Below, piece after piece: positions 1 to 64,000 of a DNA stretch of 64,000 nt. This DNA comes from Alphaproteobacteria bacterium (lineage in GTDB: Bacteria; Pseudomonadota; Alphaproteobacteria; Bin95). The position numbers and the translations under genes are program-made. The notes under the pieces were generated by a model that was not told where the DNA came from, made no database searches, and worked only from the letters and a program-made list of their open reading frames with translations. The stretch is from positions 64,001 through 128,000 of the forward strand of contig CBDBGH010000003.1 in assembly GCA_965205265.1 (NCBI GenBank), written 5' to 3'. Within the stretch, counting starts at the first letter, position 1. Every line of letters starts with the position of its first letter.

Positions 1-421
1 GGTCGGTCCACCGCTTGCGCTTCCGCGGGCGCCGGGCGAGGCGGGTTTCGCGGGTCAGGCCGTGGCGCCTCAGGAAGCGCTGCACCGTGGTCGGGTGGAA
101 CTCCAGCCCCTCGGCGGCGAGCGCATCGCGCAGCCCGTACATGGAAAGCCCCGGCCGCGCCTCCAGAATGCGCAGGATGCGCGCGCGCTCCGGCCCGATC
201 TGCGAGCGGCGGCCGCCCCGCCTGTCGGCCCGCACATGGCCGCGCTCGCGAAACCGCTTCACCCAACCCCAGACACTGCTCTTCGGCAGGCCGAACCGCC
301 GCGCCGCCGCACGTATGCTCATGCCCTCGCGCAGCACGGCCGCCACCGCCGCCGCCCGCAGGTCCTCGCCCACCGCCCGGCCCCGCCGCCGCCCCGGCAA
401 TCCGTCCACGGGTCCGTCCAT
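1..421 (-). CDS. IS630-type N-terminal HTH protein (runs off window start; not in ORF track)
   Basis: Manual minus-strand translation from ATG 421: MDGPVDGLPGRRRGRAVGEDLRAAAVAAVLREGMSIRAAARRFGLPKSSVWGWVKRFRERGHVRADRRGGRRSQIGPERARILRILEARPGLSMYGLRDALAAEGLEFHPTTVQRFLRRHGLTR..., the IS630 OrfA double-HTH pattern; purine-rich RBS upstream. Confidence 0.8.
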   Translation of the reverse strand, partial: MDGPVDGLPGRRRGRAVGEDLRAAAVAAVLREGMSIRAAARRFGLPKSSVWGWVKRFRERGHVRADRRGGRRSQIGPERARILRILEARPGLSMYGLRDALAAEGLEFHPTTVQRFLRRHGLTRETRLARRPRKRKRWTD

Positions 422-639
422 CGCCCTGTCTTTTCCTCTGGCGATTCCGCCGCCGCGAACCGCCCCTTTTCGGCCGAAATCGACCGCCACGTCCGGCCGT
501 CCGGCCGCACCTCCCCTCTGGGTCGGCGGGGGCCCCGGTCAGCGGTCCTCACGCCTTCGGTTTCGGTGCTTCGCAAGGGCGGCGCAAGCCGCCGCCGGTC
601 GGTCAGGTCATGGCCTCTCTCGGCATGTTTTCTTGGTAA

Positions 640-675
640 GAAGGGATATATAGAGAACAAATAGCCTGGAGTCAA
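640..675 (-). promoter_or_regulatory. sigma70-type promoter TTGACT-N17-TATATA with degenerate LexA-like box GTTC-N7-ATCC over the -10
   Basis: AT-rich island; -35 at 675-670, -10 at 652-647; box 644-658 has 2 mismatches to alphaproteobacterial GTTC-N7-GTTC. Confidence 0.55.
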
Positions 676-715
676 GCTGATCGGGGCCGTTTCCTCCCCC
701 GTCATGCCCCCGTAT

Positions 716-803
716 CGTCATGCCCGGACTTGTTCCGGGCATCCCCCGCCGCCGCTTCCACCGCACGGCCGCATGGATACCCGGAACAAGTCCGGGTATG
801 ACG
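716..803. repeat. Alphaproteobacterial REP/RIME-like palindromic element
   Basis: CGTCATGCCCGGACTTGTTCCGGGCATCC (716-744) and its near-perfect inverse GGATACCCGGAACAAGTCCGGGTATGACG (775-803); each arm is itself a hairpin. Confidence 0.85.
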
Positions 804-926
804 GAGGAGAGGCGCTCTTCGACAGGCTCCTTCGATACGCGGCTGCCTGCCGGGCGGCGTTGACGGCGGAAGCGGCGCCGGCCCAGACTGGCGGACGGCG
901 GCAGAGGGGGAGGAGGCCCGCGGCCC

Positions 927-2084
927 ATGAGCCATGAGAAGCCCTATGCGGGGCTGCGCGTCGTCGATCTCAGCCAGGGGATCGCCGGGCCCTATTGCGC
1001 GATGCTGCTGGCGCAGCACGGCGCCGATGTCATCAAGGTCGAGCCGCCCGAGGGCGACTGGGCGCGGGTGCTGGGCCCCCGCTATGGCAGCCACACGGCG
1101 TTTTCCGTCATCGGCAATCTAGGCAAGCGCGGCATCGTGCTGGACCTCAAGCAGGAGGGCGACAAGGAAAAGCTGCGCCGGCTGCTGCGGACCGCGGACG
1201 TCTTCATGGAGGGCTTCCGGCCGGGCGTGGCCGCGCGGCTCGGCTTCGATTTCGAGACCGTGAAGACGCTGGCGCCGGGCATCGTCTATGTCTCGGTTTC
1301 GGGCTTCGGGCAGACCGGCCCGCTCAGCGCCAAGCCCGCGATGGACCCGGTGTTGCAGGCCTTCACCGGCTTCACGCACGAGAACAAGGGCCATGACGGC
1401 ATCCCGCACCGCGCCACCCCGATCATCGTGGACATGTCCACCGCGCTCTACACGCACCAGGCGGTGGCGGCGGCGGTCTATGCGCAGCGCGACGACCGCC
1501 GGGCGCGCTTCATCGACTCCAGCCTGATGGCGGCGGCCGCCAACCTCCAGGCGGTGCGCATGTGTGCGACGGTGATGGAAGGCCGGCCCATGCAGATGCC
1601 GACCTCGCCTTCCGGCGTGTTCCGGACGGCCGATGGCTGGCTGCATCTCGTCGTCCTGAAGGACAGCGACTTCCAGGCGCTTTGCGGCCTGATCGACCGC
1701 TCCGACCTCGCGGCCGACCCGCGCTTCGCAGGCCCGGCGGGGCGGGCGACCCATGCCGAAGAACTCAATGCTGCGGTCGCGGAGCATATTGCGGCAGGGC
1801 CGACGGCGCACTGGCAGGAATGCCTGACCGAAGCCGGGCTCCAGAACGAGGCGGTCCAGGACTATGCGCAGTTCGCCGCGCATCCGCAGACGGAGGCGAT
1901 GGGCCTGATTTCGCATCTGGAGCAGCCCGGCGGCGACCGCCTCTGGCCGGTGCCCAACCCGGCCGGCGCGCCGCCGCTGGTTTCGGGAAGCCCGGCCGCG
2001 ACGGCGCCCGCGCTCGGCCAGCACACGCAAGAAGTGCTGCTGGAACTGGAGGAATCGGAGACCGTCGCCGCCGCCGAGGAGTGA
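927..2084 (+). CDS. CoA-transferase family III (CaiB/BaiF)
   Basis: LRVVDLSQGIAGPYCAMLLAQHGADVIKVEPP, NLGKRGIVLDLK, APALGQHT motifs. Confidence 0.93.
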   Translation: MSHEKPYAGLRVVDLSQGIAGPYCAMLLAQHGADVIKVEPPEGDWARVLGPRYGSHTAFSVIGNLGKRGIVLDLKQEGDKEKLRRLLRTADVFMEGFRPGVAARLGFDFETVKTLAPGIVYVSVSGFGQTGPLSAKPAMDPVLQAFTGFTHENKGHDGIPHRATPIIVDMSTALYTHQAVAAAVYAQRDDRRARFIDSSLMAAAANLQAVRMCATVMEGRPMQMPTSPSGVFRTADGWLHLVVLKDSDFQALCGLIDRSDLAADPRFAGPAGRATHAEELNAAVAEHIAAGPTAHWQECLTEAGLQNEAVQDYAQFAAHPQTEAMGLISHLEQPGGDRLWPVPNPAGAPPLVSGSPAATAPALGQHTQEVLLELEESETVAAAEE

Positions 2085-42583: not shown

Positions 42584-43000
42584 TCAGGGCGTGGGCGCGT
42601 AGGGGTCGTAGGAGCCGAAATTCCAGAGATGCCCCTCCGGGTCGAGCGCGCCGTAGAGCTGCCCGCCATAGGGCTGGTCCTCCGGCGCCATCACGACCTC
42701 CGCCCCGGCGGCCGCGGCGCGCGCATGGTGCGCGTCCACATCGGCCACGATCAGGTAAGGGCACTGCGTCTGCCGGCCGCCGACCTCGCCGGGCGAGACC
42801 ATGCGCGTGTCGTAGTCCCCGTCGCGCGCTTGGCCCAGCATGACCATGCCGTGGCCGAAGGTCAGCTGCGCATGCTCGATCGCGCCGTCCTCGCCCTCGA
42901 CCACGAGATGGCGTTCGAAGCCGAAGGCGCGGCAAAGCCAGTCCAGCGCCGCGCGGGAATCGCGATAGCGGAGCGTCGGAATTACGGTGGGCGTCGGCAT
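42584..43000 (-). CDS. VOC/glyoxalase-family protein
   Basis: LDWLCRAFGF, HAQL, DQPYG, DPEGHLW. Confidence 0.88.
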   Translation of the reverse strand: MPTPTVIPTLRYRDSRAALDWLCRAFGFERHLVVEGEDGAIEHAQLTFGHGMVMLGQARDGDYDTRMVSPGEVGGRQTQCPYLIVADVDAHHARAAAAGAEVVMAPEDQPYGGQLYGALDPEGHLWNFGSYDPYAPTP

Positions 43001-43080
43001 CGGGACCCCCTTCGTGAGCGGCCGGTCGCCGCCATTGGTCGCGCGCCTCCGCCCGCCGGTCAAGCCCGCCCGATAGAGGA

Positions 43081-43126
43081 TTTATTTCTCAAAAAAGCTT
43101 GCAATCCTCCCGTCGCGCGCTATATT
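43081..43126 (+). promoter_or_regulatory. sigma70-type promoter TTGCAA-N16-TATATT with upstream A/T tract
   Basis: TTTATTTCTCAAAAAAG UP-like tract; -35 at 43099, -10 at 43121; no credible sense gene downstream. Confidence 0.65.
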
Positions 43127-43257
43127 CCCTTCCCGGGTGCGGGTTGGAAGCGGGACCATGACTTGGACTTGAGCGGACGGGCGGTCGGGCCCCATGCAGC
43201 GAGAACCGGAAGCGTGAAAGCGCCGCGCGGCGGCAAACGGGGGAGTTGCGTGCGCGC

Positions 43258-43410
43258 GCCGGGGCGCCGGCGGAAATCATGCGGGCAGGTTTCACACGCC
43301 CGCCCCTTGTCCGGAGCCTGCGTCTCCGGCCGGGCGCGCCGGGGCGGCCCGGTCTGCGCCTGCCGGGGCGCCGGCGGAAATCATGCGGGCAGGTTTCACA
43401 TGCCCGCCCC
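43258..43410. repeat. Two 49-bp direct repeats (period 104 bp)
   Basis: GCCGGGGCGCCGGCGGAAATCATGCGGGCAGGTTTCACA(C/T)GCCCGCCCC at 43258-43306 and 43362-43410, one mismatch. Confidence 0.95.
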
Positions 43411-43792
43411 GACGGGGCCGTGCGAGCGGTTTCTTGCGGGGGCGGCCCTTCTTCAGCGTTACACCGTGGCGTTTCAGGAACCCCCGCATGGCGCGGTAGC
43501 CGAAGATCAGACCGCGCCGGGCCAGCACCGAGCGCAGCGCGGTGGCGGTCAAATCCGGATTTTTCGCGACGATGCCGAGGATCGCGTCGCGTTCGGCGTC
43601 GATGCGCCGGGGCGAGCGGTCGCCGCCCATCGGGCGGCGCTCCGGGCTGCCGTTCTCGCGTTCGAGCGCGCGCCAGTTCACGATGGTGTTCACGCTTATG
43701 CGGAACCGCGCCGCCGCCGCCCGGTAGGACAGCCCTTCAGCGACGGCTTCGAGCACGCGAACCCTGAGATCGTAGGAAAGGGGTTTCGCCAT
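43292..43792 (-). CDS. Stand-alone IS630-type HTH protein, no DDE domain
   Basis: MAKPLSYDLRVRVLEAVAEGLSYRAAAARFRISVNTIVNW...PMGGDRS...NPDLT...FLKRHGVTLKK; RBS GGGAGG. Confidence 0.85.
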   Translation of the reverse strand: MAKPLSYDLRVRVLEAVAEGLSYRAAAARFRISVNTIVNWRALERENGSPERRPMGGDRSPRRIDAERDAILGIVAKNPDLTATALRSVLARRGLIFGYRAMRGFLKRHGVTLKKGRPRKKPLARPRRGGHVKPARMISAGAPAGADRAAPARPAGDAGSGQGAGV

Positions 43793-43828
43793 ATCCGCCG
43801 GACCTCCCTTGCCGGCGGGGCCGGTTTG

Positions 43829-43843
43829 GAACAAAATAAGAAT
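43829..43843. promoter_or_regulatory. LexA-like box GAAC-N7-GAAT abutting a TACAAT -10 of the HTH gene
   Basis: GAAC-AAAATAA-GAAT, one mismatch to alphaproteobacterial GAAC-N7-GAAC, about 37 bp upstream of the ATG. Confidence 0.65.
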
Positions 43844-44235
43844 ATTGTAAAGGGCCGAACGCGCCGGCCGCGCAGATCCGGCAAAGCTGCCGCAGACTGC
43901 GCACCGACCTGCGGATCGGACGGAATGCCTCGCGGGCGAGGTCATGGCGATGCGCCGGGAGGAGCCTGCCCGGCCTGTGACGGTGGGAGCGGACATGGCC
44001 CATAATACGGCGGCGTTCGTCGGGACCCGCAAAGCCTTCGGCGCCTGGCCGGCAAGGCTTTCCGTCCGCAAGTCCGCACTGCTGCACCGAAATCCGCTGC
44101 CTCGTTCCCTCCGAAGAAATCCACCCGACCGATACGTTCGCGCCGACAGGCACCCATAGGAATCGCGACTTGCCGCGTTCTTCCGCAGCCTGCCAGGACG
44201 CTACAATCCGCGTCCGATGCACGGAGTTCTGAAAG

Positions 44236-44967
44236 ATGCTCGATCCCGCCCGGTACGACGCAATAACATTCGACTGCTATGGAACACTCATAGATTGGGA
44301 CACCGGCGTTGCGAACGCATTCGGCCCATGGGCTGTGAAGACCGGATTTGCCGGGTCCATCGCTAACCTGGTTGAGCGTTTCGCCCGCCATCAAAGAGAG
44401 AGGCAAATTGTTCGACCGGCGCTCAACTATCGGGATGTGATACTTCAGGCTTTCGAGGGCGCTGCCGGCGATCTGGGGGGCTTCGTGTCCGACGAGGACC
44501 TGGCGGCGTTCAGCCGGAGTGTGGGCACCTGGCCCTGTTTCCCCGACACAATCGACGCACTTCGGAACCTGAAAGCCAGGGGATTCCACCTCGGGATCGT
44601 GTCGAATGTGGACAACGCCTCCTTTGAGGATACGCACAAGCGGTTGGGGGGGATGATCGACACCGTGGTGACCGCGGAGACGGTTGGCGCCTACAAGCCT
44701 GACTTGAAGATGTTCGAGGCGCTCTTTTCAGCCCTTGCCGCGCGCGGGATCGCGCGAAAAAGGATTCTTCATGTCGCCCAAAGCCGCTTCCACGACGTTG
44801 CGCCCGGCAATGAACTCGGCCTGAATGTTGTCTGGATCGACCGCCGGCATGGCCGACCCGGCAAAGGTGTCACGATCCCGTCGGACGCCAGGCCGCTGAT
44901 AAGGTTCGATAGTCTTGAGACGATGGTTGACAGCCTGAACCGTAACTCGCGCACGCTTAATGTTTGA
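44236..44967 (+). CDS. HAD-superfamily hydrolase (haloacid dehalogenase type II-like)
   Basis: FDCYGTLIDW, VSNVD, YKP, HVAQSRFHD. Confidence 0.9.
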   Translation: MLDPARYDAITFDCYGTLIDWDTGVANAFGPWAVKTGFAGSIANLVERFARHQRERQIVRPALNYRDVILQAFEGAAGDLGGFVSDEDLAAFSRSVGTWPCFPDTIDALRNLKARGFHLGIVSNVDNASFEDTHKRLGGMIDTVVTAETVGAYKPDLKMFEALFSALAARGIARKRILHVAQSRFHDVAPGNELGLNVVWIDRRHGRPGKGVTIPSDARPLIRFDSLETMVDSLNRNSRTLNV

Positions 44968-45075
44968 CCGTATGCGGTGCGGGCACCCCACCTTCATCCG
45001 GGCCTGGCGATGTGGGGGTTAGAGCACGATCCGATCCGTATGGATCGAATGTTTGTCGACGGGTAGCCGCGGACC

Positions 45076-45479
45076 TTGAAGACTACAAGACCGGCCCCGC
45101 GCGCGGTGTCGCTCGGCAAGGCGGCGCAGGGGCTGATCGAGACCCTGCCCGGTACCCGCAAGAAGGACGTTCCTGTTTCCGCGTCATGCGGAGAAACGCG
45201 GAACGGGGAGCTTCGACGGCTGGCGGCGCGCGGTCTGCGAGGATGCCCGGCTCGGCAGGCTCCGCCTGCATGACCTTCAGCACACGGCAGCCAGCCAGGC
45301 CGTTGCGGCAGGCGAGAATCTGCCGCTGGTGGCTGCCCGGCCACCGACGGCACCGGATGACAGCGGGCTACGCCCACCTTGCCGACGGATACCTTGTCGA
45401 AGCGGCGGAGAAGGTCGGAGCAATCATCGCTGCCGCGATGGCGAGTCAACGCCCACGACCGATAACGCATCGGCAATAG
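45076..45479 (+). pseudogene. Tyrosine integrase C-terminal relic
   Basis: Frameshifted pieces: YKTGP.RAVSLGKAAQGLIETLPG; RLHDLQHTAASQAVAAGENLPLV; GHRRHRMTAGYAHLADGYLVEAAEKVG. Confidence 0.85.
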
Positions 45480-45521: not shown

Positions 45522-46163
45522 TCAATCCGGGGCGAGCGTGTCGCCCGTGTAAAAGGCCGCCGTCCGCTGCGCCGCTGCGCGCGCAATGTCGGGGTCCGTT
45601 CCCGCTGCCTCGGCCGCCCGGCCCCACGCTGCGCTGCTTCCGACGATGAGCGCCCTTCCGTCACGAGTCGTGTGGAACGTTGCCGCGTCCAGCTTGGGTT
45701 CGTTCGGCCGCGCAAGATGCAGTTCCATCCCCAGCAGGCCCATCTCCCAACCTACGCCAACGGCGCCGGGACCGAACTCGTGCCAGTGGTCGGACACCAG
45801 CGCGGTATGTGTAATCGCAAGGCGCGAGCGGCCGGTACCGTCGCTGCACAGACGCGCCTCCACCCAGCTCACGTCACCGCCGAACTCCCACGTCAGCCCG
45901 AGATGCGAGGGAGGCTCGCAATGCCCGATCGTGCCGCCTGCGTTTCCCTCCAGCTGGTAGCGCCCGCCGGGTTCCAGGCGGCCGCTGACCGGCAGGAACC
46001 AGCGCGGGATTCGTTCCGCGCTCGTCACGGCGTCCCAGAGGTCCTCCACTGTCGTCACGTAGCTGCGGGCGAGGGTGACCGCGCGCGCGGCCTGTCCGTC
46101 GCGCTCCAGGGACGACACTGTGCGCTCCACGGCGCCGAGAAGGCGTTCGACATCCAGATCCAT
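45522..46163 (-). CDS. SRPBCC/AHSA1-domain protein
   Basis: LWDAVTSAERIPRWF, CEPP, TWEFGG, GVGWEMGL. Confidence 0.85.
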   Translation of the reverse strand: MDLDVERLLGAVERTVSSLERDGQAARAVTLARSYVTTVEDLWDAVTSAERIPRWFLPVSGRLEPGGRYQLEGNAGGTIGHCEPPSHLGLTWEFGGDVSWVEARLCSDGTGRSRLAITHTALVSDHWHEFGPGAVGVGWEMGLLGMELHLARPNEPKLDAATFHTTRDGRALIVGSSAAWGRAAEAAGTDPDIARAAAQRTAAFYTGDTLAPD

Positions 46164-46262: not shown

Positions 46263-47048
46263 CTACATGCCTTCGCGGACCACGGGGTTGGAGAGGGTGC
46301 CGAGGCCGGTGATCTCGATTTCGCAGAGGTCGCCATGCGCCATGTTCGGCCCGGCGCCCTCCGTTCCCATCCAGACCACGTCGCCCGGCACGAGCGTCAG
46401 ATAGCGGGACATGCGGGCGATGAAGGTCTCGACGGAGAAGATCATCGAATCGGTGGCGAAGCGGATCGTCTCCTCACCGTTCAGGCGCACGACGGTTTCC
46501 GTGCCGGCAGGGTCGAATTCGGTGTCGATCCAGGGGCCCATCGGCGCGAAGCTGTCTGTGTTCTTAGCCCGCCAGAGGGTGCGGTCATGCGCCTGCCAGT
46601 GGCGCTCGGAGACATCGTTGCCGATGGTGTAGCCGAGCAGGTGGCCGCGCACCTCGTCCTCGCGGATATGGCGCGCCGTCCGCCCGATCACCGCCACCAG
46701 CTCCGCCTCGTATTGCACGCGCCCGGTTGCGTCCGCCGGGATCACGATGGGGCATTTGTGGCCGGTGAGCGCGTTGACGGCGCGGTAGCCGATATCCGCG
46801 CTTTCCGGCAGGGAGGGAACCTCGCCGCGCTTGTTCGCGGCCGCCACGGCGTGCTCGGGATAGTTGAGGCCGGCTGCGTAGAAGGTGGGAGGCACGACCG
46901 GCGGCAGGAAGGCGGCGGTTTCCAGCGGGATACGATCCCCGGTCGGCGCATGGTCGCCGAAGGGGGAACCCCTGACTGTCGCGATGCTGTCGCCCTCGAC
47001 AACGCCGTAGCAGGGGCCGTCCGCCGTTTCGATCCGCGCCCAGCGCAT
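46263..47048 (-). CDS. Fumarylacetoacetate hydrolase-family protein
   Basis: GLNYPEH, YEAEL, GNDVSER, AKNTDSFAPMGP, PGDVVWMGT. Confidence 0.9.
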   Translation of the reverse strand: MRWARIETADGPCYGVVEGDSIATVRGSPFGDHAPTGDRIPLETAAFLPPVVPPTFYAAGLNYPEHAVAAANKRGEVPSLPESADIGYRAVNALTGHKCPIVIPADATGRVQYEAELVAVIGRTARHIREDEVRGHLLGYTIGNDVSERHWQAHDRTLWRAKNTDSFAPMGPWIDTEFDPAGTETVVRLNGEETIRFATDSMIFSVETFIARMSRYLTLVPGDVVWMGTEGAGPNMAHGDLCEIEITGLGTLSNPVVREGM

Positions 47049-47184
47049 GGCGCATCCTCCAATTTCCAGGTCGGGCCATTCGTGGCCTGCCCCCAACCGC
47101 CGGTCAAGTCCGCGCTGTGTCCCCGAGGGGCGGCAGCCTGCATAATGGCGGTTCCATCGCTCGCAGGGGAAAGGGCAGAGGCAC

Positions 47185-48777
47185 ATGGTCGATCTCGCGC
47201 ATCTCACGCTTGCCGGGGCCTCGCGGGCCATTGCGGCGGGGCAGTTGTCCTCGGTCGAATTGGTAGAGGCGACGCTCGCGCGCATCGAGGCCTATGACGC
47301 GCGTCTCGACAGCCATGTGACGGTGATGGCGGAGAGCGCGCTGGCGGACGCCGGGGCGGCGGATGCCGAGATTGCGGCGGGGCGCCGCCGGGGGCCGCTG
47401 CACGGCGTCACCGTCGCGCTCAAGGACATCTACGACACCGCCGGCGTGCTGACCGCCGGCGGCTCGAAGACGCAGCAGGACCGCGTGCCGGCCGAAGACG
47501 CCGAGACGGTGCGCCGGCTGAAGGCGGCGGGCGCCGTCATCACCGGCAAGCTCGCCACGCACGAGTTCGCGCATGGCGGCCCGAGTTTCGACCTGCCCTG
47601 GCCGCCCGCCCGGAACCCTTGGAACACCGACCATTTCTCCGGCGGCTCGTCCAGCGGCTCCGGCGTTGCGGTAGCGGCGGGTCTTTGCCTGGGCGCGCTC
47701 GGCACCGACACCGGCGGCTCCATAAGGGGACCGGCCGCGCTGTCCGGCGTCGCCGGGCTGATGCCGAGCTACGGGCTGGTCAGCCGGCGCGGCGTCATCC
47801 CCAACTCCTTCACCTTCGACCATTGCGGGCCGCTCGCCTGGACGGCGGAGGACTGCGCGCTGCTGCTCGATGCGCTGGCCGGCCACGACCCGGAGGACCC
47901 GCGCTCCTCGACCCGCCCGCAGCAGCCCGCGCCGCCTTCGATGGCGGGGCTGCGCATCGGCCTGCTGCGGCACTACTGGGAGGAGGACCTGAAATGCGCA
48001 CCGGAAATGGTCGCCGCCTGCGAGCACATGGCGGCGGTTTTCCGCAGCCTCGGCGCAAGCGTGGAGACGGCGCGCATGCCGCCGGTGCAGGACTGGTACG
48101 ACGTCAAGATCACGATTGCCGAGAGCGAGCTGTTCAACGTCCACCGGCGCGACCTCCAGAGGCGCCCGCGCGACTTCGGACAGGACTTCCTCTCCCGCGC
48201 GCTCGGCGCCGTCTGCTACACCTCGCAGGACTACATCGCCGCGCACCGGCGCTGGCGGCAGCTACGGCGCGCGATGGAGCCGGTCTATGAGCGCTTCGAT
48301 ATATTGATCGCGCCCTCGGCGACAGGCCCCGCGCCGCGCCTCGACGCGCACGACACCGCGAATTTCTGGCTCTATCCCAGCATCACCACGCCCTTCGACG
48401 TGACCGGCGGGCCCGCGCTGACGGTGACGGCAGGCTACTCGGAGGGCGGCCTGCCGCTCGGCGTGCAGATCGCCGCCGCGCCCTTCCACGACCGGACCGT
48501 GCTGGCGGCGGGCCAGGCCTTCGAGGCAGCGACCGAATGGCGGAGCCGCCGCCCGGCGCTGGAGGCCGGCCCGCCGCCGGAGCGCGAGGCGGTCTCCCTG
48601 CCGGCGCCGGTCCTGCCCCCGGAAGGCAAGCTGTTGGACGAGGTGCGGATGCTCGCCGCCGCCGCCGGCCTGCCGGACGACGATTATGTGCTTGCCCTGA
48701 TCGCCGAAGGCGCCCCCCATGCCCGCGCCATGGGCAAGCGGCTGGACAGGGACTACGGCTACGGCGACGAGATTTGA
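47185..48777 (+). CDS. Amidase-signature enzyme with C-terminal extension
   Basis: ALKDIY, GGSSSGS, GTDTGGSIR, DHCGPL, GLPLGVQ. Confidence 0.92.
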   Translation: MVDLAHLTLAGASRAIAAGQLSSVELVEATLARIEAYDARLDSHVTVMAESALADAGAADAEIAAGRRRGPLHGVTVALKDIYDTAGVLTAGGSKTQQDRVPAEDAETVRRLKAAGAVITGKLATHEFAHGGPSFDLPWPPARNPWNTDHFSGGSSSGSGVAVAAGLCLGALGTDTGGSIRGPAALSGVAGLMPSYGLVSRRGVIPNSFTFDHCGPLAWTAEDCALLLDALAGHDPEDPRSSTRPQQPAPPSMAGLRIGLLRHYWEEDLKCAPEMVAACEHMAAVFRSLGASVETARMPPVQDWYDVKITIAESELFNVHRRDLQRRPRDFGQDFLSRALGAVCYTSQDYIAAHRRWRQLRRAMEPVYERFDILIAPSATGPAPRLDAHDTANFWLYPSITTPFDVTGGPALTVTAGYSEGGLPLGVQIAAAPFHDRTVLAAGQAFEAATEWRSRRPALEAGPPPEREAVSLPAPVLPPEGKLLDEVRMLAAAAGLPDDDYVLALIAEGAPHARAMGKRLDRDYGYGDEI

Positions 48778-61971: not shown

Positions 61972-62010
61972 GTTCCTGATTTATTCTAACATGGCTTGGC
62001 CGAAACGCAA
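61972..62010 (-). promoter_or_regulatory. Promoter TTGCGT-N16-(TGT)TAGAAT with LexA-like GAAT-N7-GAAC overlapping the -10
   Basis: -35 at 62010-62005, -10 at 61988-61983, box at 61972-61986 (one mismatch). Confidence 0.7.
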
Positions 62011-62630: not shown

Positions 62631-64000
62631 CCTGACTTCGACGGTTGGGCTGACTTCTGACCGATCTCGCGTCTGGAGTTTTCAGTAAAGCCAATGAGTT
62701 GGCAGTTGCGGTGCGGTCAAGCTGCGTTGTAGTGCCTAGTAAATCTTTGAGACTGTCAATGCCTCCGCCACGCGCTACACTCCCCCCATGTTCGTGCGCA
62801 TCAAGACCTCCCCCAACAGCCCGCGACGCTCGGTCCAGATCGTCGAGGCCGTGCGCGACGGCGGCAAGGTCCGACAGCGCATCGTCCGCCATGTCGGCGT
62901 GGCCATGGACGAGGACGAGCTCGAGCGCCTGAGGCAGCTCGGCGAGTACGTCAAGGCGAAGCTGGAGGACGAGCGTCAGCCGGCATTGTTTGCGCCCGAG
63001 AAGATCGCTGAGCAGGCGATCCGTGTCGGCCGCCGGGGGGACGGCAAGGAGGAACTCCCGGTCGACCTCAAGCAGCTTGAAGAGGAGCAGCGCCTGATCA
63101 CAGGCATCCACGAGGTCTATGGCGAGATCTACCGGCTGCTGGGCCTCGACGCGCTGCTGCCGCGCTCGCGCTACCGGGCCTCCCATGACGCGCTGTTCCA
63201 TGTGGTGATGGCGCGGGTAGCCAACCCCGACAGCAAGCGGGGCAGCGTGCGCCGGCTCGAGGAGGACTTCGGCGTGAGTCTTCCGCTCGAGAAGGTCTAC
63301 CGGATGATGGATCAGCTCGACGCGACGGTGATCGAGCGACTGCGCACGCGCGTCGGCGAGGCGAGCCGGTCGCTGCTGCCGGAGCCGGTCGCGATCCTCT
63401 TCTTCGATTGCACCACGCTCTACTTCGAGACGGCCGCCGAGGACGAGCTTCGCCAGCACGGCTTCAGCAAGGACGGCAAACACAAGGACTCGCAGGTTCT
63501 GCTGGCGCTGATGGTGACGCGCGAAGGGCTGCCGATCAGCTACGAGGTCTTCCCCGGCGCCACCTACGAGGGACACAGCATGGTCCCGGTCCTGCAGGAC
63601 ATGCAGCGCCGCCACCAGGTGGAGCGCACGGTATGCGTGGCCGACCGGGGCATGCTGAGCGCCGACAACCTCGACGCCATGGACGCCATCGGCGGCGAGT
63701 ATGTCGTCGGCGCGCGGCTGCGCAAGCTGCCGCTCGCGCTGCTGGGGCAGGTTCTCGACCCCGGGACCTATGCCCCGCTGGAGGGCTCACAGGACCGCCG
63801 GGTCGGCGAGTGGGAGTACAAGGGCCGTCGCCTGATCGTCGTCTTCTGCCCCCAGCGCGCACGCAAGGACGCGCACGAGCGCCGCCATCAGGTGGAACGC
63901 CTGCTCGACAGGCTGGCCCGCAGCGACAATCCCAGGGAACTGCTCTCCAATCACGGGGCGAAGCGCTTCATCGCCGTCGAGGGCGACGCACGGCTCACGG
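62631..64000 (+). mobile_element. IS1634-family insertion sequence (left part)
   Basis: End-like sequence CCTGACTTCGAC at 62631, followed by the transposase. Confidence 0.85.
62788..64000 (+). CDS. IS1634-family transposase (runs off window end; not in ORF track)
   Basis: MFVRIKTSPNSPRRSVQIVEAVRDGGKVRQRIVRHVG..., PDSK, FFDCTTLYFE, GFSKDGK, GLPISYEVFPG, VADRGM. Confidence 0.93.
   Translation, partial: MFVRIKTSPNSPRRSVQIVEAVRDGGKVRQRIVRHVGVAMDEDELERLRQLGEYVKAKLEDERQPALFAPEKIAEQAIRVGRRGDGKEELPVDLKQLEEEQRLITGIHEVYGEIYRLLGLDALLPRSRYRASHDALFHVVMARVANPDSKRGSVRRLEEDFGVSLPLEKVYRMMDQLDATVIERLRTRVGEASRSLLPEPVAILFFDCTTLYFETAAEDELRQHGFSKDGKHKDSQVLLALMVTREGLPISYEVFPGATYEGHSMVPVLQDMQRRHQVERTVCVADRGMLSADNLDAMDAIGGEYVVGARLRKLPLALLGQVLDPGTYAPLEGSQDRRVGEWEYKGRRLIVVFCPQRARKDAHERRHQVERLLDRLARSDNPRELLSNHGAKRFIAVEGDARLT

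Follow-up and report, generated by a model that had tools for sequence, protein, structure and literature searches.

The DNA-binding domains of Pax proteins, SETMAR, and CENP-B are derived from transposases. To our knowledge, domestication of such domains is well known in eukaryotes and has rarely been documented in bacteria. The short products IS1 InsA, Tn5 Inh, and IS911 OrfA, all encoded within active elements, bind the ends of the element and inhibit its transposition or the expression of its transposase. According to passages of PMC2170065, the N-terminal two-HTH domain of ISY100 binds terminal inverted repeats. LexA represses the Tn5 transposase (as stated in passages of PMC8533742), integron integrases are described as being under SOS control (in parts of PMC3323433), and the SOS box of Caulobacter is given as GTTCN7GTTC (PMC9578287, table 1).

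Here, we analyzed a 64,000-nt stretch of an alphaproteobacterial genome (contig CBDBGH010000003.1, positions 64,001 to 128,000; hereafter, the window), which carries two HTH-only genes related to IS630 transposases: the focal gene, belonging to a lineage termed group B, and copy 1, of the group A lineage, at the left edge (Table 1). No description of such an HTH-only, SOS-linked family was found in the literature searched. The explanation that we favor, and consider reasonably probable, is a stand-alone IS630-derived family in which group A would be released by LexA, while group B would have been derived separately. Domestication of the HTH genes is well supported.

HTH-only proteins of the IS630 type

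Against the IS630 transposase model NF033545 (299 positions; cutoff, 100 bits), the focal protein scored 45.8 bits and the copy 1 protein 61 bits, both below the cutoff and both aligning to positions 1 to 120 only. The Pfam families HTH_23, HTH_28, and HTH_Tnp_Tc3_2 matched both proteins, and the basic tails GRPRKK and RRPRKRKR were confirmed. These results bear out the preliminary description, which had read both genes as an IS630 OrfA double HTH followed by a basic tail. Identity between the two proteins is 40% over 106 aa, and the focal protein is 45% identical to the OrfA of famX, an IS630 family of the same genome.

In the AF2 model of the focal protein, helices at residues 7-18, 23-30, and 34-47 and at 61-77, 83-92, and 99-108 form two three-helix HTH subdomains joined by a linker, with pLDDT values of 86 to 97 inside the bundles. 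Profile matches in the PDB included Sleeping Beauty PAI (E = 1e-6) and RED (E = 5e-5) as well as Prd/Pax (E = 4e-6 to 4e-3). The top Foldseek rows were Pax6, Pax5, Prd, SETMAR, Mos1, and Tc3; their E values were weak (1e-3 or worse), in keeping with the flexibility of a two-domain model. The predicted fold is of the paired-like (PAI+RED) bipartite DNA-binding type.

The focal ORF (43292-43792, minus strand) translates into 166 aa, whereas its orthologues end at 129 to 135 aa. GC content by codon position in the core is of the coding type (0.69/0.53/0.85); in the extension (aa 127 to 166), it is 0.88/0.78/0.72, and pLDDT is 48 to 64. Given the orthologue lengths and these two properties, the extension is probably a read-through of two local repeat copies and is unlikely to be a genuine part of the protein. 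The focal locus is the sole site of the 56-nt repeat in the genome. Public DNA contigs whose sequence is that of the window break off at these repeats. The lost stop codon and a degenerate candidate -10 element could reflect decay of this particular copy.

When OrfB/DDE proteins from IS630 elements of the same genome were used as tblastn queries, no hits (E ≤ 1) were obtained within 3 kb on either side of any of the 18 HTH-only genes. The focal gene reads CTG AAG AAG GGC where the genome's two-ORF IS630 copies carry an A-run. Genuine IS630 copies in this genome end in CTAG/AGC..., and CTAGAGC, the end of these families, does not occur in the window; no inverted-repeat pair was found flanking either window gene. 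The earlier view that the focal gene is devoid of an A-run, a DDE frame, and IS ends is consistent with all of these observations. Of the features that define an IS630 insertion sequence, the HTH domain was found; a DDE domain, terminal inverted repeats with a TA/CTAG target duplication, and near-identical nonsyntenic copies were not. A short end-like motif remains on one side of the HTH genes only.

A catalytic domain to the left of the window, left open for copy 1 in the preliminary description, is absent: the protein ends in ...RKRKRWTDR two codons outside the window (stop at contig position 63996), and tRNA-Cys and tRNA-Asn genes lie beyond. A word-index search for longer fused proteins gave no match, a result that counts as weak evidence. 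An exhaustive HMMER search yielded matches of at least 50% identity that were all short (59 to 262 aa) with two exceptions. P0196 (2,335 aa) is a multi-stretch HTH-repeat protein whose 49% identity rounds to the 50% line, and P0247 (344 aa) is 54% identical over query residues 3 to 82 only, matching at an internal position (112-191). Other long matches were multi-HTH repeat proteins or transposases with at most ~43% identity. A PADLOC search returned nothing meaningful, and PHROGs matches comprised only transposase N termini and an unknown 109-aa family. An integrase fragment suspected from translation at 44964-45476 (plus strand) was discarded, as Pfam found nothing there.

Table 1. Features at the two HTH loci, in window coordinates
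Feature	Position	Strand	Details
Copy 1, group A HTH gene	2..421	-	140 aa; stop codon 3-5 nt left of the window
Copy 1 leader motif GGCCATGACCTGACCGACC	597..615	-	Purine-rich stretch plus ATG-ACC-TGA (candidate upstream mini-ORF)
Copy 1 putative promoter	644..677	-	-35 GCTTGAC; box GTTC-TCTATAT-ATCC (644-658), two mismatches here
Leader-only element, convergent on the focal gene	43090..43260	+	Leader HMM, E = 1.5e-10
Promoter of leader-only element, TTGCAA-16-TATATT	43099-43126	+	Predicted by promoter scan
Motif of leader-only element, ATGACTTGGACTTGA	43158-43172	+	Degenerate box also in the element
56-nt direct repeat, copy 1	43251..43306		With hairpin GCGGGCA-N9-TGCCCGC
56-nt direct repeat, copy 2	43355..43410		Within the ORF extension; 95% identical, 104-nt period
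Focal ORF, probable read-through extension (aa 127-166)	43292..43414	-	Enters repeat DNA
Focal group B HTH gene, core (aa 1-126)	43415..43792	-	Two three-helix HTH bundles plus basic tail (LKKGRPRKKPLARP)
Focal Shine-Dalgarno sequence, AGGGAGG	43803..43809	-	10 nt before ATG
LexA-like box ATTC-TTATTTT-GTTC	43829..43843	-	GAAC-N7-GAAT on the plus strand; one mismatch to GTTC-N7-GTTC
TTTACAAT	43844..43851	-	TACAAT as candidate -10, or TTTACA as alternative -35

Promoters and LexA-like boxes

The promoter of group A genes reads TTGACA-N12-GTTC-TATATAT-GTTC; its -10 element lies inside the box, and operator and core promoter overlap. In the genus, 18 of 18 lexA promoters carry a perfect GTTC-N7-GTTC box, and GTTC-N7-ATTC is found at 12 of 17 recA promoters. 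Five of the 14 perfect boxes with an AT spacer in the genome precede group A genes by 150 to 550 nt in the same orientation, versus ~0.01 expected by chance, an enrichment of ~450-fold. Among the 15 group A genes, five boxes are perfect and three carry one mismatch at the homologous position (8/15 with at most one mismatch), and one paralogue has ATTC-TATATAT-GTTC exactly at the site of its relatives' perfect box. At 27 loci from relatives, the leader was present in 25, the box in 14 (6 perfect), and the motif in 21. A LexA link is strongly supported by these sequences for the group A lineage at the family level, and SOS control of group A is likely. As the -10 element lies inside the putative operator, joint induction after DNA damage would be expected.

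At copy 1, the first half-site and the spacer of the box are kept in 6 of 6 orthologues, with ATTC, ATCC, or TTTC as the second half-site. In three of the five species, the orthologous box reads GTTC-N7-ATTC, as is also conserved at recA. An Rfam search of window positions 1 to 1200 gave two subthreshold chance matches only.

The ribosome-binding site AGGGAGG, the TACAAT hexamer, and the GAAC-N7-GAAT box that had been reported upstream of the focal gene are all present. The 5'UTR around the Shine-Dalgarno sequence shows homology with the 5'UTR of the famX IS630 in this genome. The box abuts TTTACAAT, and its position is kept in orthologues and paralogues. RTTC-W7-GTTC has one match in the 64-kb window and none in 100 shuffles, and just five one-mismatch boxes with an all-A/T spacer exist genome-wide. 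Among the boxes of 10 group B genes, 7 have one mismatch, 3 have two, and none is perfect; the first half-site varies (ATTC, GTTC, ATCC, AGTC, ATTT), and the second is mostly GTTC. A conserved block begins at TTTACAAT in four orthologues and two paralogues. A consensus promoter scan did not call TTTACAAT as a promoter. If TTTACA is taken as the alternative -35, TAnnnC follows 17 nt further on in most relatives. Downstream, the same inverted leader-only element that converges on the focal gene (Table 1) is present at 7 of 10 group B genes. Rfam had no match in window positions 42900 to 44200.

For SOS control of the focal copy itself, these sequences leave about even odds. The best-surviving rival, which we regard as a serious contender though somewhat short of an even chance, holds that the family is domesticated but that the focal gene is not LexA controlled, its AT-rich block being a sigma-70 promoter or an operator of its own protein. 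The absence of perfect boxes and the unconserved first half-site in group B fit this reading, as does the promoter TTTACA-N17-TAnnnC, which, read by eye, fits 8 of 11 sequences; moreover, the second half-site aligns with the famX IS630 5'UTR (TTTGTGATTCAAGA) and may be inherited IS sequence. However, 12 of 17 genomes keep a one-mismatch box at recA in which an A opens one of the half-sites, and ATTC-TATATAT-GTTC occupies the perfect-box position in the group A paralogue mentioned above. Furthermore, 4 of the 6 genomic ATTC-N7-GTTC sites with an AT-rich spacer belong to the HTH family or its leader elements. Of the damage inducibility under LexA proposed in the preliminary description, the part that is supported concerns group A, with canonical boxes over the -10 element; the boxes of the two window genes, with one and two mismatches, are imperfect.

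Distribution, synteny, and selection

The two HTH-only genes first noticed in the window proved to be members of a larger set, with 15 group A and 3 group B genes in the genome. Group A occurs in 12 of 16 congeners at 1 to 38 copies each (none in the rest), and a search of 150 other families of the class returned no group A gene. In a large protein set, the family formed 297 clusters, the best 120 of which span 117 to 171 aa. Its members are currently annotated as "transposase" or "helix-turn-helix domain-containing protein." In a tree, group A falls outside the clade that unites group B with true OrfAs.

Glyoxalase and FAA-hydrolase genes neighbor the focal gene in three species (G006, G002, and G010), and copy 1 lies between tRNA genes and a CoA-transferase gene in five other species. 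The syntenic counterparts of both are intact ORFs of ~130 to 141 aa. Ordinary metabolic genes neighbor most copies, including both in the window.

It is improbable that these genes are selfish elements, whether OrfA-only IS630 derivatives moved in trans by resident full-length transposases or remnants of SOS-inducible long-ended IS630, and hence parasites instead of host genes. Such elements could account for the range of 0 to 38 copies among congeners, for the group B gene of G010 being on the opposite side of the FAA-hydrolase gene, and for the copies that adjoin integrases, tRNA genes, or toxin-antitoxin modules. In addition, the leader motif CATGAYCTG(GAYCTG)A, including its copy 1 form GGCCATGACCTGACCGACC, resembles the left-end tip of famX IS630 (TAGAGCATGATCTGACC); the motif lies in direct orientation upstream of group A genes and inverted downstream at 7 of 10 group B loci, which is where the left and right ends of an IS would lie. 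The leader motif may be a relic of an IS630 left end, an idea that the orientation pattern helps and that we treat as a lead. However, the similarity between leaders and the famX IS630 end is weak overall (p < 0.01 by local alignment in 2 of 10 leaders only), the conserved promoter sits outside the end-like motif, and paired inverted ends were not found at any unit. Synteny of individual copies extends over three to five species; within the genome, copies are 70 to 92% identical in DNA sequence, whereas the real IS630 families comprise 5, 7, and 8 nearly identical copies. RNAalifold predicted no pairs in 33 leader segments, a result of little weight since the alignment is poor beyond the motif.

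Very unlikely, too, are inert IS630 fossils whose ORFs stay open since stops are rare at 68% GC and whose boxes arise by chance in AT-rich promoter remnants. The genes do evolve fast: the focal protein is 57 to 64% identical to its syntenic orthologues (neighbor proteins, ~90%), and pN/pS is 0.5 to 1.0, versus ~0.1 for neighbors (0.09 to 0.14 in flanking genes). Antisense frames are open too, the focal 5'UTR is visibly IS derived, and the focal ORF has lost its stop and reads into the repeat. Nevertheless, pooled pN/pS over ten disjoint pairs is 0.71 (binomial p = 1.1e-6), though individual pairs range from 0.52 to 0.99 and 5 of 10 do not differ significantly from 1; purifying constraint on the HTH genes is weak, yet real. 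Among copy 1 orthologues, dS is low. Decay is further contradicted by the absence of frameshifts and internal stops in 18 of 18 copies in the genome, and of internal stops in almost all of the ~150 listed group A matches in congeners, by the uniform length of ~140 aa across the 297 clusters, and by the coding-type GC3 signature of the focal core. Also, loci have been retained through speciation with promoter and RBS conserved, and perfect LexA boxes are enriched as described above. That these genes are domesticated rather than a decaying IS, as originally suggested, agrees with an expanded family that is stand-alone, indel free, syntenic, and uniform in length and has a pN/pS below 1.

Finally, a role as regulators or accessory factors (third component or excision factor) of adjacent toxin-antitoxin modules or islands is highly doubtful: 4 or 5 of 15 group A genes are followed by VapBC, FitAB-like, or HigB genes in the same orientation at gaps of 41 to 300 nt, and two have divergent tyrosine integrases upstream, but only one such pair was found among the downstream neighbors in relatives (25 ORFs at 17 loci), the module is missing at the orthologous G010 locus, and most copies adjoin metabolic genes; the linkage was rejected, as it fails in relatives.

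Proposed origin and comparison with known systems

Under the favored explanation of a stand-alone family, the HTH proteins would derive from the N-terminal PAI+RED double HTH of IS630-type transposases, and their genes would be chromosomally fixed and vertically inherited within one alphaproteobacterial genus. Each group A gene would be transcribed from a sigma-70-type promoter (TTGACA-N16-TATATA) with the -10 element within a GTTC-N7-GTTC LexA operator; DNA damage would lead to LexA cleavage, and the whole group A set would be switched on together. The transcript would open with a leader of 150 to 550 nt carrying the conserved motif. Group B would have a separate origin from a famX-like IS630, of which the 5'UTR and OrfA would have been retained while the left end and the DDE half disappeared; the conserved AT-rich promoter block with its imperfect LexA-like box would have been acquired. 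We infer LexA binding, damage induction, and DNA binding by the proteins from sequence features. Speculatively, the proteins could target the end-like motif beside their own genes (autoregulation) and possibly resident IS630 ends.

The evidence points to a lineage-specific burst of domesticated HTH genes wired to the DNA damage response. If LexA control holds, no other class in the SOS regulon of the genus would be as numerous as the transposase-derived HTH proteins, which prompts the question of how a cell would benefit when a dozen or more of them are released upon DNA damage. A bolder version, which we consider unlikely, is a genus-wide set of 15 to 38 fast-diversifying IS630-HTH paralogues per genome, all LexA released and each with a transposon-end-derived operator, that after damage would bind IS630 ends or other sites; such a set would be a bacterial counterpart of Pax or KRAB-ZNF-style transposon repressors and would make up the largest block of the SOS regulon in the genus. 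For annotation, HTH-only genes would be miscounted as IS fragments.

The bipartite double HTH with a basic stretch is common to these proteins and to the OrfAs of IS630-Tc1-mariner elements (ISY100, famX, famY). In contrast to the latter, the HTH-only genes have no DDE domain, A-run, inverted-repeat ends, or target duplication, and their copies are diverged, single locus, and syntenic across species. With the Pax paired domain, SETMAR, and CENP-B, they share the predicted PAI+RED-type fold (top matches, Pax6, Pax5, Prd, and SETMAR-TIR) and the same logic, a transposase DNA-binding domain kept without the catalytic core. Unlike those cases, the HTH family is bacterial, restricted to one genus, present as 15 to 38 paralogues per genome, and apparently tied to an SOS operator.

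The group A box equals both the lexA box of the genus and the Caulobacter motif as tabulated in PMC9578287. Whereas the usual alphaproteobacterial LexA regulon comprises repair functions, the putative targets here are transposase-derived HTH proteins, and group A would account for more of the genome's perfect boxes than any other single class (5/14). The genes of the Tn5 transposase and integron integrases are likewise transposon derived, with a LexA operator at their promoters; in contrast to these, the HTH-only product has no catalytic domain and cannot transpose, and the units are immobile. By analogy, the truncated transposase inhibitors InsA, Inh, and OrfA offer a plausible working model for the HTH family.

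Stand-alone helix-turn-helix proteins

The focal gene (group B) and a second gene in the window, copy 1 (group A), encode proteins of 166 and 140 aa, respectively, that are 40% identical and match the Pfam families HTH_23, HTH_28, and HTH_Tnp_Tc3_2. Both align to the IS630 transposase model (299 positions) over its first 120 positions only, at 45.8 bits (focal) and 61 bits (copy 1) against a cutoff of 100. When a profile of the focal protein and 37 relatives was used as the query of a structure search, it matched the PAI (E = 1e-6) and RED (E = 5e-5) subdomains of Sleeping Beauty, as well as Drosophila Paired, Pax-8, Pax-6, and Pax-5 (E = 4e-6 to 4e-3). The AlphaFold model of the focal protein (mean pLDDT 77) has two bundles of three helices each, spanning residues 7-47 and 61-108, and a disordered tail. 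Its top Foldseek rows were Pax6, Pax5, Prd, the SETMAR-TIR complex, Mos1, and Tc3; the weak E-values (1e-3 to 0.2) are expected given two flexibly linked subdomains.

The preliminary description had reported a helix-turn-helix (HTH) region without a transposase core in both genes, and this is confirmed. Genuine IS630 elements are present in the genome as 8 single-ORF copies and as two two-ORF families, famX (5 copies) and famY (7 copies), each ~1058 bp long with nearly identical copies and ends reading CTAG/AGC.... A tblastn search with the genome's own IS630 DDE halves found no match at E<=1 within 3 kb on either side of any of its 18 HTH-only genes, and the end sequence CTAGAGC does not occur within the window. 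The window occupies positions 64001-128000 of a 5.46-Mb contig (C3). As the ORF of copy 1 terminates (...RKRKRWTDR, stop) two codons past the left window edge and is followed by tRNA-Cys and then tRNA-Asn, the catalytic domain previously considered possible beyond that edge does not exist. The basic tails of both proteins, the RBS AGGGAGG, TACAAT, and GAAC-N7-GAAT upstream of the focal gene, and its lack of an A-run slippery site (CTG AAG AAG GGC stands there instead) were all found as described. The HTH-only genes are transposase-derived genes that the host has retained, and they encode stand-alone proteins predicted to bind DNA through a paired-like domain.

The tail of the focal ORF is partly a read-through artifact. 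Residues 127-166 fall within a 56-nt repeat that is present twice, at a period of 104 nt, and was found nowhere else in the genome. The GC content by codon position is non-coding-like in this part (0.88/0.78/0.72) and 0.69/0.53/0.85 in the core, and the focal orthologs end at 129-135 aa, past a comparable basic stretch. The hairpin in the repeat could act as a bidirectional terminator; as it lies inside the annotated ORF, the focal mRNA might then be without a stop codon.

Features of the window discussed in the text
Feature	Position	Strand	Remarks
Copy 1	2-421	-	HTH-only gene, group A
Mini-ORF motif	597-615	-	copy 1; conserved in all group A leaders, e.g., loci L042, L054, L055
Glyoxalase gene	42584-43063		
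Leader-only copy of group A upstream unit	43090-43260	+	TTGCAA-16-TATATT promoter, degenerate box, ATGACTTGGACTTGA
Motif at focal locus	43158-43172	+	
56-nt repeat	43251-43306 and 43355-43410		local 104-nt tandem duplication; carries hairpin GCGGGCA-N9-TGCCCGC, 7-bp stem
Focal gene	43292-43792	-	HTH-only gene, group B
GAAC-N7-GAAT	43829-43843		upstream of focal gene
Extra DNA, ~2.4 kb, this genome	43850-46260		between focal gene and FAA-hydrolase gene; the two adjacent in congener G006
Inverted-repeat element	43917-44068		25-nt inverted repeat pair around ~100 nt, just upstream of focal promoter
HAD hydrolase	44236-44967	+	in extra 2.4 kb
AHSA1/SRPBCC-like gene	45522-46163	-	in extra 2.4 kb
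FAA-hydrolase gene	46263-47285		
recA-type box GTTCCTGATTTATTC	61972-61986	+	in AT-rich stretch, no obvious gene behind; adjoins IS4-type transposase gene

LexA-like boxes, promoters, and leaders

The lexA promoter of the genus carries a perfect GTTC-TAYATTR-GTTC at 18/18 loci, and recA carries GTTC-YTGAAAT-ATTC at 12/17; these boxes agree with the Caulobacter box GTTCN7GTTC as published in table 1 of PMC9578287. A second lexA paralog in this genome (C3 5303211-5303876, L037; 129.8 bits) has its own perfect box, GTTCTATATAAGTTC, and one lexA was seen in each of the 16 congeners searched.

Perfect GTTC-N7-GTTC sites number 120 in the genome, 14 of them with an AT-rich spacer. Five of these 14 precede group A genes, on their strand, by 150-550 nt (chance expectation, ~0.01), two are at lexA genes, and two are IS630 slippery sites. 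The latter, at C3 422090 and 3541462 in another two-ORF IS630 type, read GTTCAAAAAAAGTTC and therefore score as perfect LexA boxes, a trap for motif scans. One-mismatch boxes occur at the homologous position in three further group A genes. The group A promoter context is constant (CTTGACA, 12 nt, GTTC-TATATAT-GTTC), and with this spacing the -10 falls inside the operator. Twenty-nine group A loci were examined, 2 of this genome and 27 of relatives; the leader between promoter and start codon was present at 27 (25/27 from relatives), a box with at most one mismatch at 16 (14/27 from relatives, 6 perfect), and the leader motif at 23 (21/27 from relatives). Judged by these promoter sequences, the copy-1 lineage (group A) very probably belongs to the SOS regulon.

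The LexA case is weaker for the window's own two copies than for group A at large. The box of copy 1 is GTTC-TCTATAT-ATCC, and its orthologs in three congeners (G010, G002, and G011) have the recA-type ...ATTC. The focal box is ATTC-TTATTTT-GTTC; RTTC-W7-GTTC has one match in the window and none in 100 shuffles. In a set of ten group B genes, no box is perfect, seven having one mismatch and three having two, and the first half-site is variable. The second focal half-site aligns with TTTGTGATTCAAGA of the famX 5' UTR, in a homology that begins at the ATG and reaches approximately IS position 51; upstream of this point, a conserved TTTACAAT block replaces the IS left end. This block could be a -10 (TACAAT), as proposed earlier, or a -35 (TTTACA, with TAnnnC 17 nt on in most relatives), and a consensus promoter scan called neither. 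Although its box is degenerate and its tail is read-through, the focal copy may belong to the SOS regulon.

In group A, 150-550 nt separate the promoter and the start codon. About 30 nt past the box, a purine-rich stretch leads into a motif that is either CATGAYCTGA or CATGAYCTGGAYCTGA. As a mini-ORF, this motif gives ATG-ACC-TGA or the five-codon ATG-ATC-TGG-AYC-TGA, the variants differing by one GAYCTG unit. It resembles the left-end tip of famX (TAGAGCATGATCTGACC versus GAGAGGCCATGACCTGACC); the overall similarity of leader and IS end is weak. In group B, the motif is found downstream of the gene, inverted, at 7/10 loci. As these sites are where the left and right ends of an IS would be expected, the motif is likely a relic of a transposon end, and it is a candidate HTH-protein operator. 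At the focal locus, the motif follows its own TTGCAA-16-TATATT promoter in a leader-only unit oriented into the focal gene from its 3' end, a convergent layout shared by 7/10 group B loci; this unit may be an antisense or small-RNA unit. The leader regions matched no Rfam family, and no consensus RNA fold of the leaders emerged. Two solo units consisting of a box-bearing promoter and leader with no HTH gene behind them (L057 and L058; C3 1028815-1028904(-) and 801900-801993(+)) were also observed, one of which ends in a terminator-like hairpin.

Distribution, genomic context, and selection

The 18 HTH-only genes of this genome comprise 15 of group A (including copy 1) and 3 of group B (including the focal gene), and paralogs are 70-92% identical in DNA, essentially just over the gene and upstream unit. 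Group A proteins are ~140 aa long and often end in RLARR..RKRKRWTER. The group is present in 12/16 other species of the genus (E<=1e-20) at 1-38 copies per genome, with internal stops absent from almost all of the ~150 listed matches in congeners, and in 0/150 genomes from other families in the class. A large protein collection contained 297 clusters of the HTH-only family. The best 120 of these 297 are 117-171 aa long (mostly 140-150 aa). Where a name is given, it is "transposase" or "helix-turn-helix domain-containing protein," and the source is alphaproteobacterial metagenome bins. An exhaustive HMMER search gave matches of 59-262 aa at 50% identity or more, with two exceptions. P0247 (344 aa) is 54% identical over query residues 3-82 only, at an internal (112-191) and not N-terminal position. 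P0196 (2,335 aa), whose 49% identity rounds to the 50% line, has five HTH stretches; it and the other long matches are multi-HTH repeat proteins rather than transposase fusions. The closest single-stretch proteins of transposase length (>300 aa) matching from the N terminus are ~41% identical. In a maximum-likelihood tree, group B and true IS630 OrfAs (including famX and famY) form one well-supported clade (97/96), and the placement of group A outside it suggests that the two groups originated separately.

Both window genes are chromosomally fixed. The focal gene is situated between the glyoxalase and FAA-hydrolase genes, which its orthologs also adjoin in G006, G002, and G010; in G010, the group B gene is on the opposite side of the FAA-hydrolase gene. 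The inverted-repeat element near the focal promoter looks like a small MITE-type repeat. A segment at C3 2774297-2774423 matches part of it at 86% identity, and across 43952-44045 the depth of public contigs is raised, with variants. The copy 1 unit (~705 bp from -35 to stop codon) is located between tRNA genes and a CoA-transferase gene in five other species. At L069 (G008) and L085 (G010), a group A unit is directly upstream of a class II (B12-dependent) ribonucleotide reductase gene. In this genome, integrases adjoin two of the 15 group A genes, and toxin-antitoxin modules (VapBC, FitAB-like, or HigB; L042, L040, L044, L053, and L039) are directly downstream of 4-5. This linkage was set aside, as the tested ORFs downstream of group A genes in relatives included just one such pair; in G010, the module is missing at the orthologous site.

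Constraint on the HTH-only genes is real but weak. The dN/dS was 0.42-0.73 between the focal gene and its orthologs, had a median of 0.71 over 105 pairs of group A paralogs, and was 0.09-0.14 for flanking genes in the same genomes. Ten disjoint pairs pooled gave a pN/pS of 0.71 with an excess of synonymous changes (p=1.1e-6); 5/10 were not significant individually. The dS of the copy-1 orthologs (2-421 and L060-L065) was 0.12-0.26, below the 0.35-0.42 of housekeeping genes at the focal locus, which served as the reference rather than the adjacent CoA-transferase gene; recent exchange or constraint at the nucleotide level may be involved.

Searches of a paper library found no description of such a family. 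There are related precedents: Tn5 transposase is described as repressed by LexA (PMC8533742), and the two-HTH domain of ISY100 is described as binding TIRs (PMC2170065).
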